Shown piece after piece: positions 36,140 to 55,900 of a stretch of 64,000 nucleotides of DNA. How positions within the stretch are numbered: the stretch's first letter is position 1; every line of letters starts with the position of its first letter. This DNA is from Octopus vulgaris (taxonomy: Eukaryota): the NCBI GenBank assembly GCA_951406725.2, contig OX597818.1, positions 119,350,001 to 119,414,000 of the forward strand. Reading direction: 5' to 3'. The position numbers and the translations under genes were made by a program. The notes under the pieces are model-generated. The model saw only the letters and a program-made list of their open reading frames with translations. It did no database searches and had not been told where the DNA came from.

Positions 36140-36345
36140 TGTCCAGGCAGTCGCCATGATTGACCGCTAACCCCAAAAGATTTTTTTATTCTGTCTCTGT
36201 TTATTTCCACGTGTTCCTTTCTGCTGAAGAGCAATAGGCTCGAAACGTAAAAGATTTTTACACCTTCCAGGTCGTTAAACTAATACACCTGTTTGTTGTT
36301 TAAACACTGTCTTCGTCGTTTGTTTTTCTGTAAATTTCAACTATA
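36140..36345 (+). mobile_element. Hammerhead-bearing short element
   Basis: Homologous over >150 bp to the reverse complement of 37227-37440. Confidence 0.55.
36217..36253 (+). ncRNA. Variant-core minimal hammerhead (CUGCUGA)
   Basis: cuuu CUGCUGA a gagc-aauag-gcuc GAAAC GU A aaag. Confidence 0.55.
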
Positions 36346-37226
36346 AATAAATAGCATTTATACTTCTAAGTTCTAAGTGTAAATACAGTGAGATATTAGA
36401 AAGATATACAACCTACCTTTGATTTTCTGGCGTATTCTAAAATGCAATGGAGTGCAATTATGAAATGCAATGATTTCATCTTTAGATTGATGCCAACGTA
36501 TCTGATACTTAAACTCTCTTTGGAGTATTCTACGCTGTGAAGTAATGTTTTCAAGCGAGGAAAACATTATTATCTATTACAAAGAAGCTTATCCAGATGC
36601 CATAGTTGAGTAATTAAGAAAATGTAATTTACAGCATCCTCTTGAAAATAACAACCAATTATTGATTGTATAAAGCGAGAAAGTCTGTTTTGACAACGTT
36701 ACACGCTCAGCGAGTAATGTATTTTAATGGCTACTTCACATCTACTTGAATATTGAATAAATGCACAAACGCAGTTTTTCGAACGCAAGCACAGAAAACA
36801 CGCATGTACACATTGGCATGAATTCACGTTTATATTTACTGACGTTTTCACCATTACAAAAAGTTGCTGGCTGACAAAGGCAGATACAGATTCTCGACTA
36901 AACTCATACGTGCGTGCACACATATGCATATATATATATATATATATATATATATGTATATGTGTGTGTGTGTGTGTGTGTGTAGATATATATATCTGCA
37001 TATATATATATATATATATATATATGCATATATATATATCTACATATATATATATATATATATATACATATATGTATATGTATATGTACATATATGCATA
37101 TTATATATATATATACACACATCTATATATCCCCATACACATGTCTAAATATAAGTATATATCTATATATGAGTGTATGCATACATATTCAAACATACAT
37201 GAATATATACATATATACATTATATA

Positions 37227-37480
37227 TAGGGAGAATTCACAAAAAAACAAAAGACGAAGACAGGTGGTGTAGACAACAAACAGATATATTAGTTTAACTC
37301 TCGGGAAGTGAAAATGTCTTTAACGTTTCGAGCCTATGCTCTTCCACAGAAAGTAACACAGAAAGAAACAAGAAGAGAAAATATAGACTGTGTTGTGGCT
37401 AGCGACCTATCATGCGGAATACCGGATAGAGGGGTCACACAGGAGATAATAATGTAGTGGTGATCCGAAAACTAAGGTGC
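37227..37480 (-). mobile_element. Hammerhead-bearing short element, inverted relative to the 36140 copy
   Basis: Homology to 36140-36345; flanked by TA/TACA repeats. Confidence 0.55.
37318..37353 (-). ncRNA. Variant-core minimal hammerhead (CUGUGGA), same family as 36217
   Basis: Minus strand: cuuu CUGUGGA a gagc-auag-gcuc GAAAC GU U aaag. Confidence 0.5.
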
Positions 37481-38395
37481 GCGTACATACATACATGCAT
37501 ACATACATATATACTTACATACATGCATACATACATACATACACACACACATACATGCTTACATACTAAAAAAGCTTCTAGCATACACACAAAATATGAA
37601 ATTTGGAACGGTGTTAATTGCTAACAACAACCAAATACATTGGTTTTTTATGGAATTCGAAGGGCGGAAGGTAAAGTTGTCTACTTCGGAATTTGAACTC
37701 AAAGTGGAAAAACTTTGCAAGAACCTGCAGCAAGGCGTTTTAAATGAAATACAGGAAATTCTGTCGCTTGACTTGGAGTCGGTTTAAAATTATAGACTTC
37801 ACTGTTACGCTAAACATAAAATCCATACGAGCTTGAGGTTTCTGTCACTCTAATATGCTAAGAGCATGTATGAATGGTAAATTAAAGTAAGTGGTTCACT
37901 GGGAAACAGTGTCCAAGTCCAAGAGCCAGTTGCACCTGTGCTTAATGCAATTTGGCAGTACAAGCAAAATGGTAGATGAACAAATAGTCATGTATATACA
38001 CGATCACTGCACAAGTATCCACACACTCAGGTGCTTGCAGAGATGCAGATAGACAGAGAGACTAACAGAGGCATACATACATATATATTTGTATGAATGT
38101 ATGAATGTGTGGATTATGTATGTGTAAGAATACATATATTCATGCACACACACACATACACATACATATATATACATATATATATATATATATATATATA
38201 TATATATATATATATATATATATATATATATATATATATATATATATTTACACTAAAAATAAGGGTGTCTGAGAGACACCACCATGCTGAAATAGCAGTC
38301 AAATCCCTGACTCTAAAAACCACGTTAAATGTTCATATCGCACCATGAGATAAGACAGAGGGACAAAATAGACTAGCAAAAAATATTACTGAATA

Positions 38396-52055: not shown

Positions 52056-52482
52056 ATTTACATTATTTACATTTGACGAATATTTGTCCCCGTCTTGTTT
52101 GTTGTTAACACAACGTTTCGGCTGATATACACTCCAGCCTTCATCAGGTGTCTTGGGGAAATTTCGAACCTGGGTTCTCATTCCTAAGGTATTTTTCCAT
52201 GTTATTATTATTGTTATTATTATTACTACTACTACTACTACTATTATTATTATTATTATTATTATTATTATTATTATTATTATTATTATTATTAATATTT
52301 GTAGTAGTAGTAGTAGTAGTAGTAGTAGTAGTAGTAGTAGTAGTAGTACGCCATATAACCGTGGGCAATTATGTAGTGAATTTTTAGGGCATATAAATCT
52401 AATATTTTCCTGAAGGCTGGAGTGTATATCAGCCGAAACGTTGTGTTAACAACAAACAAGTTGAAGACAAATATCCGTCAAA
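52056..52482. mobile_element. Hammerhead-bearing short element (minus, 52056-52200) plus inverted partial copy (52411-52482); third fragment at 52997-53048
   Basis: Visible inverted homology between 52072-52143 and 52411-52482, separated by (TTA)n/(GTA)n. Confidence 0.65.
52107..52152 (-). ncRNA. Minimal type I hammerhead ribozyme
   Basis: Minus strand: gacac CUGAUGA a ggcug-gaguguauau-cagcc GAAAC GU U guguu. Loopless palindromic ACGU stem III, GUU triplet. Confidence 0.75.
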
Positions 52483-52710
52483 AAGTGAAGATTCTTTGGT
52501 AGCGTAACATAGTTGTTATGCATAATAACGGTGGAGTGGTGAAGCTAACAGTTGAAATGGAAAAACAGTTTTCAACGTGGAATGATATCCCAAAAGATGT
52601 TGAAGTTTTTATTCGTTTCGAAGCCATTCTGTCCTTTTAATTCGGTTTGTAAAATTAATGTGTTGAGAAAAAAGAACACCACAATCACGACCATAGCAGC
52701 AACATTATTA

Positions 52711-52928
52711 ATCCTTTCTAATATAGGCACAAAGCCTGAAATTTTTTGGAGGGAATAGACGATTTCAGCGTTCCCAGTCGATCACTGGGGCCTATGTAAT
52801 TAATTGACCCCGAAATGATAAAAGGCAAAGTCAACCTCAACGGAACTCGAAATCAGAGCGTGAAGCAGCAAGAAATGCTGCTTAGCATTTCTCTGCTGCT
52901 TGCAGATGACTCTGTCAGTTCAACGACT
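52711..52928 (-). mobile_element. Diverged SINE family B
   Basis: Homology to family B. Confidence 0.7.
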
Positions 52929-55900
52929 TTGTTATAAGACCAGCAGTTCTAGGACGTTGGGTAAGTCAAGCACATCGACCCCAGTTCTTTAATGGTACTC
53001 CAGCCTTCATCAGGTGCCTTGGGGAAATTTCGTACCTGGGTTCTCATTACGCCGTTATTTGGACTCAGAACAACACCATCAATATTGCTGCTGAGAGATT
53101 CTGCCGGCCGATTCTTGCAGCTGAATCGAAATGAAATTCTTAACCACACCGCACTCATAAGATTACATTTGCAAGTGTTATCAATTATAATTAATTAATG
53201 CTTCTTAATTATTTTCTTCTGTAAGACGGCTCTAATTGCCTTTATAAGATTTCAGTTGAATCAAATCACGTTCTTATAAACACGATAAAGAAACAGCAAT
53301 TGTTTTTAACTCTTATTCATTCGGGAAACATTCTGAAATAAAATGAAACACCTGTTGTATGCATATGTCCTTGGGTTTCCTTCTCTTTAATAAGCTTTAT
53401 CGATTAAGTGTTTGCTGTTTTTAATATGGAAGAGATTTTTGCCAGACAGTAATGGAGCCCCCATGTTGTCTTCTGATCTGTTGGAAATATCGACCAAATC
53501 TTCAAACTGATGAAATAGGAAGGATATTAAAACAATGTGGTCCTTGCTGTGTAATCCTTGTATTTAAATTAGAATATCCACGACTGGGACGCCCTTTGAT
53601 CACAAATACACCCGATTACATTAGATTCTGGCTGAACAACAATAAAAGAATGAGAGAGTATTTATATGAATATCTAACTTAAATTACTTTTACAGTTGAA
53701 AGTAAGCCCGAGAGTGCGCCTGATTTCTGTCGAGTTAGCACTCAGCATTTACACGTCAGTGTTATAACTGAAAACTTCCAGGCATGGCGGAGGATATGCG
53801 TACATATATAATAGTGGCAATGAATATTCCGATCGTAAAGTTGTATACGAGATTGAGTCAAAAGATATTTCAAGCTTTAATATAGTTCAAAGATATCACA
53901 AATAAATAGATAGGTAGATACATACACACACACGCATATTATGTACGTACTTAGGGTAAATTCCTTCCAATAGGAAATTTCTCACATGGCTAACTAACAT
54001 GTAAAAGTTCGTAATTCCTATTAGCAAATGAAACAAAACAAGCGTAATGGTGAATACAAAATAGCAAAATAATGTCCATTCTTCCTGTTTTGTAATTAAC
54101 ATTTCGAAACCTCATGTATACAAGAATTATCTACTTTCGGGGGTAAAATTACTATAAGTTACCATTAACATCCGAACCTACTTCGAGATATTTATTATCA
54201 CAACACCATTTCTAAACATAAATGTAAAAGTAAAAATGGGTTCTAGAGAAGAATATCTGGACTCCATTAAAGTTAAAAATCATTGTCACCTACGAGACAT
54301 TTTAATTTGTTCTGCATTGATTTTGTAATAACTCAGGATATAAAAATGTGTGAGCTTTCATTTATTTATTTATTTTTTATCTTTCTCAACATTAAATTGC
54401 AAGTAATATGGCGTTGAAACAAGTTACATTTCAATAAATAAACATTCATACTTATATATATATATATATATATATATATATATATATATATATATATATA
54501 TATATATATACAAGTGTGTGTGTATATATATATATATATATATATATATATAAATACACACACACACACACACATATATATATATATATATATATATATA
54601 TACAAATATATGTGTGTGAGTGTGTGTGTATGTACGTGTGTATATATATATATATATATTTATATGCATATATGTATGTACATGTATATATATTGGAAGT
54701 GTATATCTACATATATGTGTGTGTGTTTGTGTGTGTGTATTAAATGTTTTACATAGTAACGTCATTAATTAAAGTTTTTTTTTATTAAAATTTCTCGCAC
54801 TAACGGTTTTCAAACTAAAAGACAAAATGACTCAACAGGTTTTCATATGTTAAATGTTTAAAATGTATTAATTATTATTTGAAATGCTAACCATGTGTGT
54901 GATATATGTGTCTATGTGTGTGTGTGTGTGTGCCTGTCTGTGTCCGTGTCGATGTGTGCCTGAGTTTGTGTGTGTATAAATTTTCACATATTTTTGCCTG
55001 TGGAAATATGCATTTGTGTCTACATGTAATAAGTTATACATGTATGTATGTATATTAAACTGAACCATAGTTTTAAACATTCATTTGGAATTTTAAATAT
55101 TTCACACTGTTTTACTAAGATCAATAACAAAATAGATAATAAATTTAACATTTTGGAATATCGGAAAATGAGACATGTATAATATTATCAAGAGAAATAT
55201 ATAACCATCCTACGAGATACCGGTTTTAACAGAATATATTTTTATACCACGATTTCACGAAATGAATAGAATATTAAAGTTTTATGTTTTAGCTGGTAAC
55301 TACCATTCAGCTAACACACTATGTAATTTCCAGTGTTACTTTCAAAATAGTTTAGCTATATCTATGTAACGGATCCATTTCATAGCTTTTTATTTATTTA
55401 TACACTTATTTTCTGTCATGGAGGATTCTACAGAAAATTTTAGAGGCAATTAAATGCGTACACAAAAGAATACATAACACAAATCCTCTTTATTTTTTAA
55501 AGGAATATATGAATACCAATGAACATAAATGTACAATATGTGTATGTTTTTATCTAACTCTCTCACCAGATCTACCCATCTATACAAATATATATATATC
55601 TATGTGTGTGAGTGCGTGTGCATATGTGGATAAATATATTTATGAATGTACATAGATTATATATACGTAGTTGTGTGTGTGTGTGTGTGTGTGTGTGTGT
55701 GTGTATGTAGCTAAGAATATTTATGAATTTATACAGAATATGAGTGTGTATATGTGTTTTCTTTATGGAATATTTATATGAATAAAATAGCATAAATCTG
55801 CAAAATCTATTAGTCGACGTTTTTGTCTGCATCATTGCTTTTATGTATATTCCTATCTATCTACACACACACATACACACACACAAACATACACATTAAC

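Follow-up and report, generated by a model that had tools for sequence, protein, structure and literature searches.

Solo and opposite-strand paired minimal hammerhead ribozymes from truncated Penelope-like elements (PLEs) were described in 2014 (Cervera and de la Pena, PMC4209133), and hammerheads are already known from cephalopods, with 235 Hammerhead_1 loci in the giant squid (PMC6962438). Endonuclease-bearing (EN+) PLEs comprise the clades Penelope/Poseidon, Neptune, Nematis and Hydra (Craig et al. 2021, PMC8557442); PLEs are also known for a promoter and an intron inside their pseudo-long terminal repeat (pLTR), and for retaining introns after retrotransposition (PMC8557442). Animal non-LTR retrozymes have been proposed to be non-autonomous PLE derivatives (PMC7229834; bioRxiv 10.64898/2026.07.22.740005), and a lizard PLE inserts in vitro without need for ribozyme cleavage (PMC11167929). 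Only two PLE promoters are mapped in PMC8557442, and the families described below bear on how PLEs are transcribed and how retrozyme-like elements arise from them. Statements about these sources, here and below, refer to excerpts of them. Here we study hammerhead motifs and the elements that carry them in a stretch of 64,000 nucleotides of Octopus vulgaris (assembly GCA_951406725.2, contig OX597818.1, forward-strand positions 119,350,001 to 119,414,000), called the window and numbered from its first letter. Motifs were analysed in this 64-kb window and the repeats were searched genome-wide (2.8 Gb in 227 contigs).

Our results suggest that the window contains eight independent insertions of PLE 3' ends, each with a pLTR hammerhead. 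This is part of an explanation that we regard as probable as a whole, in which three repeat families (A, C and F) are stubs of coding PLEs, two (D and E) derive from RNAs started at internal promoters, and one (B) is a unit copied in trans. A more specific proposal, whose parts taken jointly seem to us only somewhat better than an even bet, is that PLEs make non-autonomous offspring through promoters in their 3' region. A Poseidon-type element with a captured tRNA-like RNA polymerase III (Pol III) promoter would spawn a ribozyme-bearing short interspersed element (SINE), which would today account for the majority of that element's copies; a Hydra-type element would retropose a spliced pLTR RNA, so that genomic copies map its start site and introns; and A, the family met most often in this study, would rely on a hammerhead whose core position 6 is U (U6). 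The ribozyme class itself is known; the new points are the intron loss of D, the tRNA-like start of E and the U6 of A.

An earlier note on this DNA had placed type I hammerhead folds at seven positions. Hammerhead-like sequence is present at all seven, on the strands claimed, and each motif is a member of a dispersed repeat, the six families being named A to F. The copies in the window are the following.

36140..36345, + strand: family A, 3' stub (pLTR) from a PLE whose linker is of Neptune/Nematis type; C3 at 36221, site 17 at 36249, core CUGCUGA.
37235..37420, - strand: family A stub of another subfamily; C3 at 37349, site 17 at 37322; the core is CUGUGGA and the stems are preserved.
38250..38620, - strand: family B, partial copy of an ORF-less (open reading frame) head-to-tail unit of about 485 nt, between (TA)n tracts; C3 at 38447, stem III AUCCAGGAU, site 17 at 38402.
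43944..44118, - strand: family C, 3' stub left by a second PLE with a linker; C3 at 44092, and in this copy a mispaired stem III.
48985..49235, - strand: family D spliced mini-element; exon 1/exon 2 joint at 49216/49215, C3 at 49202, stem III ACAAUUGU, site 17 at 49165.
49237..49358, + strand: inverted, 5'-truncated partner of the D copy, beginning after the core.
49462..49800, - strand: family F 3' stub with a decayed ribozyme; C3 at 49712.
52045..52200, - strand: family E pLTR with an intact minimal ribozyme; C3 at 52147, stem III ACGU, site 17 at 52112.
52202..52410, - strand: remainder of the E copy, containing (AAT)n and (CTA)n tracts, 14 nt left over from the tRNA-like start (+1 at 52360) and about 50 nt of parental 3' untranslated region (UTR).
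52411..52482, + strand: inverted partner of the E copy, truncated at its 5' end and with part of the core missing.
52997..53048, - strand: third E fragment, with the 5' half of the ribozyme only.

Family D has lost an intron from most of its copies. Its parents (loci L374 and L375) encode reverse transcriptase (RT) and a GIY-YIG endonuclease, with DKT, a CxCX5C linker and CxH; the scanned part showed no RWK. The intron of L374 is 1,116 nt long, runs from a GT donor at 4982 to an AG acceptor at 6097, and leaves 13 nt between its end and C3. Spliced copies are the genomic majority: among 70 distinct D ribozymes, 60 join exon 1 to exon 2 and 6 retain the intron end. The other four are two copies with an exon 1 shorter by 3 nt, one with foreign sequence, and one (L367) joined from a second GT donor of the D parent, about 2.9 kb upstream. 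The window copy is among the spliced ones. In 58 of the 60 spliced copies, exon 1 is represented by no more than 37 nt, and the boundary reads TCATTC, which we take to be initiator-like. The GT..AG joint also occurs in contigs of both presumed-RNA runs, from two studies, and in neither of two large unlabelled runs; because spliced copies exist as DNA, its presence in run contigs is no proof of present-day splicing. We found no published report of PLE copies that are spliced in their majority.

These data make an internal promoter the likely source of the short D copies: RNA polymerase II (Pol II) would start about 37 nt before the donor, and the spliced RNA of about 270 nt would be retroposed. 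Some observations do not sit well with this. One X3 contig reaches 118 nt upstream of the donor and one genomic copy 90 nt, hence longer spliced D RNAs exist. Moreover, the donor was seen in one D subfamily only, and the window copy belongs to the other, of which the acceptor side alone was seen (L359, L371). Finally, D copies, like those of E, are related to one another, so that the pile-up of their ends may reflect few source copies. At L357 and L358, a D copy has unrelated sequence with a terminal AG abutting exon 2 precisely at the acceptor; either another donor may have been spliced to it, or a truncation may have fallen there by chance.

Family E points to a different start. Its parents (L242, L245, L258) encode RT and GIY-YIG and lack a linker, which makes them Penelope/Poseidon type by motif. 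They are ordered as endonuclease match, about 98 nt, tRNA-like segment, (AAT)n and pLTR, and the tRNA-like start lies downstream of the endonuclease in 22 of 30 E loci, as judged by pattern. In L027, the Rfam tRNA alignment places an A box from +8 and a B box from +53 of this head. Heads begin at -15 to +5 in 39 of 64 best-match copies and in 20 of 30 copies taken in genome order (among the latter, 7 others start within the head, 2 at -17/-19, and 1 extends beyond -19 into the parental UTR). Judging by the rate of drop-out within the head, a share of 0.11 would be expected at -15 to +5, a figure to be read knowing that copies are not independent. A search with the 3' 38 nt of the head plus (AAT)n recovered a pLTR downstream in 26 of 30 cases, again by pattern, and TTTT is absent from 26 of 30 E pLTR parts, which is compatible with Pol III, yet expected by chance for a single family. 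Two alternative 3' ends can be recognized by eye in E copies, an observation to be set beside the optional tail of 30-40 bp that EN+ PLEs may carry at one end. The partner of the short copies is a PLE, not a long interspersed element (LINE), and their insertions show inverted partners of PLE type.

An internal promoter, putatively a Pol III start at the tRNA-like segment, is also the likely reading for the short E copies; the resulting SINE-like RNA would be copied by the enzyme of the parent. If true, E is a SINE-like element born inside a PLE and moved by it, and we found no relevant report of a PLE-mobilised SINE in the literature. Several points weigh against this reading. The E head scores only 14.5 bits as an Rfam tRNA (E=3), below the gathering threshold of 29, and ARAGORN called no tRNA gene in 30 E loci. 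The boxes are intact in only part of the heads: the A box in 15 and the B box in 19 of 24 genome-order heads and, at exact positions, in 43 and 24 of 64 best-match heads. Four heads encountered incidentally at other loci begin at +15, +10, -15 and beyond -300, with no pile-up; a pLTR is missing within 450 nt from 12 of the 30 genome-order heads, mostly because other sequence comes after (AAT)n; and the window copy, having lost most of its head, is not of the start-at-tRNA class. Finally, a short palindrome, TGCCC-AC-GGGCA, surrounds the E start and could cause snap-back.

This palindrome is at the heart of an alternative that we judge unlikely, in which all short copies are plain 5' truncations and the RT stops or snaps back at short palindromes, that of the E start and an AT-rich one in D exon 1. 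Both pile-ups do coincide with short inverted repeats, many inverted-partner junctions lie there, and 5' truncation is the rule for PLEs (PMC8557442). Yet E copies joined to partners at many points, or lacking a partner, share the same start, the RT would have to traverse the whole tRNA-like fold and halt at its 5' side, and truncation cannot account for the exact removal of an intron in D. One could also think that Pol II makes a long transcript and that RNase P then creates the E 5' end by cleaving its tRNA-like fold. Many starts at +1 to +4 fit this idea, but the acceptor and anticodon stems of the head pair poorly and one start in three is placed 3-13 nt before +1. Pol III starts are expected upstream of +1, in that 3-13 nt region. 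We consider RNase P processing less probable still than truncation, and retain internal initiation for both D and E.

The E head may have been captured from a tRNA-headed SINE-like element such as those in the window, where other repeats of this sort, with A/B-box-like words, lie at 39430-39520 (-) and 40030-40180 (+). As a separate observation, fragments resembling another non-LTR retrotransposon follow the E (AAT)n in L424, L429, L435, L436, L438, L440 and L232; they are presumably of the R4/Dong type, which targets this repeat.

The window copies of A, C and F are what remains at the 3' end of protein-coding PLEs after 5' truncation, as judged from the frames found upstream of their relatives. 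For family A, the long copy L054 continues into a GIY-YIG frame, a genome search with this peptide gave 14,748 candidates, and 23 of 29 other fetched loci matching the peptide have an A-type 3' end downstream. One A parent (L211) has an 820-codon frame with RT (PF00078, E=5.7e-7), a CX4CxxC linker and the endonuclease, the A GIY-YIG having only a weak Pfam match (E=0.04). The C parent L216 presents RT motifs, a CX4CxxC linker, GIY-YIG, the ribozyme and an inverted partner. For F, GIY-YIG remnants lie 1.5 kb upstream in L333, L334, L338 and L343, with CxH in L334 only. Pfam gave nothing relevant for the four parent peptides other than that of A, whose PLE assignments rest on motifs, and the clades of the A, C, D, E and F parents were assigned by motif and not by a tree.

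L377 was considered as a parent of F and ruled out, for it bears its own, different ribozyme. This locus has an intact 717-codon PLE frame with RWK, DKT and CxCX5C (L377:2534-4684, in G000:C24:19245400-19252500), and its ribozyme, about 200 nt past the stop, has core CCGAAGA or CUGAAGA and stem III ACUCAGAGU. Relatives occur in L292, L297 and L048, and inverted F fragments flank L377.

Family A apparently spread with U at core position 6. This base is found in 54 of 61 copies and in all 29 endonuclease-linked ones, the family core being mostly CUGUUGA, whereas position 7 varies among the 61 copies (U in 44, G in 8, C in 5, A in 4) and the stems are maintained across subfamilies. A6 is a conserved base of the hammerhead core. 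Its replacement by U, and the canonical core in none of the 30 best A copies, could mean that U6 abolishes cleavage and that the family spread as a dead relic without a working ribozyme, and PLE insertion in vitro can indeed proceed independently of cleavage (PMC11167929). We take this possibility seriously, although we lean moderately away from it: a fixed U6, a free position 7 and stems kept across subfamilies look as if the A fold were still selected. We found no relevant published A6U hammerhead and no earlier report of a family spread with U6 in the literature, though Lunse et al. 2017, on PLE hammerhead variants, may report position-6 variants.

Family B fits a different description. Its unit of about 485 nt has no ORF, its own 3' block precedes the 5' block in 10 of the 12 copies that reach the latter, and two B ribozymes lie 484-485 nt apart at two loci; a tandem partner with a ribozyme tail was found in 3 of 30 copies. 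B is, from these arrangements, the only family that appears to fit the description of a non-LTR retrozyme, and its head-to-tail unit is likely copied in trans by a PLE enzyme. Among L379-L408, two versions of the B core occur, CUGAUGA and CCGAUGA, and an additional C may or may not stand ahead of stem II. Two loci with distant B pairs (L409, L410) contain no PLE ORF. The earlier note had seen in this locus independent non-coding families missed by protein annotation. Only B is retrozyme-like in this sense, given that A, C and F are stubs of coding PLEs and that D and E are short copies from coding parents. The broader idea, that the cluster consists of independent non-coding retrozyme families spreading through circular RNAs, thus holds in its retrozyme part for B and is already refuted for A, C and F. 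With coding parents for five of six families, and tandem partners in 0/30 copies of each of A, C, D and E and 1/30 of F, we regard it as very unlikely.

A link to Penelope RT/GIY-YIG genes, which the earlier note had proposed to look for, exists in cis for A, C, D, E and F, with RT for four of them, and was not found for B. Since five families are joined in cis to PLE genes, the motifs are the known PLE pLTR ribozyme, and the PLE-type minimal type I hammerhead that had been named is indeed the ribozyme type of the window. The ORF list of the window itself shows neither an RT nor an endonuclease frame, as had been noticed. Some results remain at odds with a common PLE origin of all six families: no parent element was found for B, no RT was seen at the F loci, which have the endonuclease alone, and no inverted partner was found within 900 nt in any of 30 A copies. 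Such partners, inverted and 5'-truncated, lie upstream in 14/30 copies of B, 6/30 of C, 23/30 of D, 17/30 of E and 11/30 of F.

The families differ in abundance, core and stems. First-look genome searches returned 3,632 candidates for A, 2,625 for B, 1,299 for C, 1,279 for D, 2,746 for E and 2,818 for F, which are not copy numbers; exact 19-21-mers count 278 for D and 75 for B, and 21-mers 3,184 for E. A canonical core with three stems is present among the 30 best copies in 21 of B, 23 of C, 29 of D, 21 of E, 11 of F and none of A, where 12 pass if U6 is tolerated. As claimed earlier, stems differ in sequence and still pair, the six families pairing through different stem sequences, and stem III is palindromic in several of them. 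Family F has a 6-bp stem II and stem III ACAGCUGU. In D, the palindrome alternates between ACAAUUGU and ACGAUCGU (50 and 21 of 72 copies, with 1 intermediate), and the double change, present in 5 of 12 aligned rows, is probably one event. The elements had also been called sequence-unrelated, which stands insofar as there are six families; the motifs at 36217 and 37318, however, both match A-type PLE 3' ends and form one superfamily. The association with (TA)n is found at the 3' end of most copies of A (23/30), B (26/30), D (30/30) and F (23/30) and of half of those of C (15/30), but only of 2/30 in E, whose (AAT)n tract lies inside the element.

These features can be assembled into a mechanism. 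In PLE parents, RT/GIY-YIG is followed by an extended 3' UTR, and the ribozyme lies 100-250 nt from the 3' end. Genomic copies extend through the ribozyme cleavage site, hence their template RNA was uncut there, in agreement with the in vitro behaviour of the lizard PLE (PMC11167929). A single minimal ribozyme would be nearly inactive and would cut as a dimer through its palindromic stem III, as the palindromes and PMC4209133 suggest. Dimer folds predicted for four window copies, computed with no control, gain 6.7-8.6 kcal/mol over two monomers, and in three of the four the stem III palindrome is predicted to pair in trans. The PLE protein would nick DNA, at (TA)n in the linker-bearing families, and begin copying the RNA at a constant 3' position, in many cases with an inverted 5'-truncated partner as a by-product. 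The D and E RNAs would be ready templates for the in vitro PLE assay of PMC11167929.

The motifs themselves were assessed with two descriptors. A strict one for the minimal hammerhead gave a single window match, at 52147-, against a mean of 0.1 and a maximum of 1 in 100 block-wise dinucleotide shuffles of the window; because of this single match, we consider it too narrow. A wider one, which accepts U6 as well as additional bases next to stem II, gave four matches (C3 at 37349-, 38447-, 49202- and 52147-) against a mean of 0.03 and a maximum of 1 in 60 shuffles, so the proposed comparison with shuffled sequence came out in favour of the motifs. Hence, of the seven folds claimed, four satisfy the minimal-hammerhead descriptor and three are decayed copies of the repeat families: 36221+ has C at core position 6, 44092- has a mispaired stem III (ACGACU, where family forms are AGAACU/AGGACU), and 49712- has changed G5 to A and lost parts of stems II and III. 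In an Rfam scan of the window, the hammerhead family is absent among the best 150 of 310 matches, which are dominated by microsatellite miRNA matches.

Whether the motifs form a cluster, as had been claimed, depends on the genomic background. In 40 evenly spaced 10-kb stretches of the genome (400 kb), the wider descriptor matched 10 times, and in none of 8 shuffles, and ribozyme segments of the six families were encountered 17 times. This extrapolates to about 70,000 minimal hammerhead motifs in the genome (95% range 34,000-129,000) and to 1.6 expected matches per 64 kb. For the four observed, P = 0.08, and the clustering thus amounts to a mild local excess at best. The 17-kb sub-window gives P = 0.001, but it was chosen afterwards and is unremarkable given about 44,000 such windows; the local grouping carries no special meaning. 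This genomic load and the fixed U6 variant imply that standard descriptors undercount the ribozyme. Further hammerhead families occur outside the window in L297, L040, L021 and L403, with stem III ACUCGAGU, ACUUCGAAGU and others.

The window has other features. At 26939-27748 (+), an open frame combines a signal-like start with numerous MDP-x-(M/L)-(F/Y)-G-x-L-G-K-(R/K) repeats and has no Pfam match; it is a candidate neuropeptide precursor exon, which we assume to be buccalin/allatostatin-A-like. A near-perfect 90-nt hairpin, with an inverted repeat of about 40 bp, lies at 25704-25793 in the Rfam listing.

Known systems help to place these families. tRNA-derived SINEs include octopus SINEs and the hammerhead-bearing SM-alpha of Schistosoma. 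The short E copies resemble tRNA-derived SINEs in their A/B-box head, short non-coding body and a 3' end in common with an autonomous partner, but their partner is a PLE instead of a LINE and their head sits inside the autonomous parent. The excerpts of PMC8557442 contain no description of such a tRNA-like segment. Octopus families share with EN+ PLEs the order RT then GIY-YIG, the inverted 5'-truncated partners and the (TA)n targets; the A and C parents have the CX4CxxC linker, and the D parent has DKT, CxCX5C and CxH, which are among the marks of Hydra (PMC8557442). Family B shares with non-LTR retrozymes an ORF-less unit of a few hundred nucleotides, a type I hammerhead and head-to-tail copies (PMC7229834), and differs from animal retrozymes in being dispersed, mostly as 1-2 units with inverted partners. 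The excerpts of bioRxiv 10.64898/2026.07.22.740005 cover vertebrates, insects and coral, with no mollusc, and name no splicing or Pol III route.

The closest likeness is with the ribozymes of PMC4209133, with which ours share an extra base between 9 and 10.1, a palindromic 15.2-16.2, many families per genome, a prevalence of single motifs tied to truncated PLEs, and opposite-strand pairs 100-700 bp apart. They differ in that B, D and F have one more unpaired base, on the 3' side of stem II, as well as a palindrome of 8-9 nt, and the excerpts make no mention of the U6 of family A. The load of about 70,000 compares with 2,000-9,000 in that study, with descriptors that differ. As in family D, the 3' end of the D. 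virilis intron abuts helix I (PMC4209133). Intron retention is nevertheless what PMC8557442 stresses for PLEs, whereas in octopus family D spliced copies outnumber unspliced ones by 60 to 6, making this family a clear exception to retention and a genomic read-out of start site and splicing.

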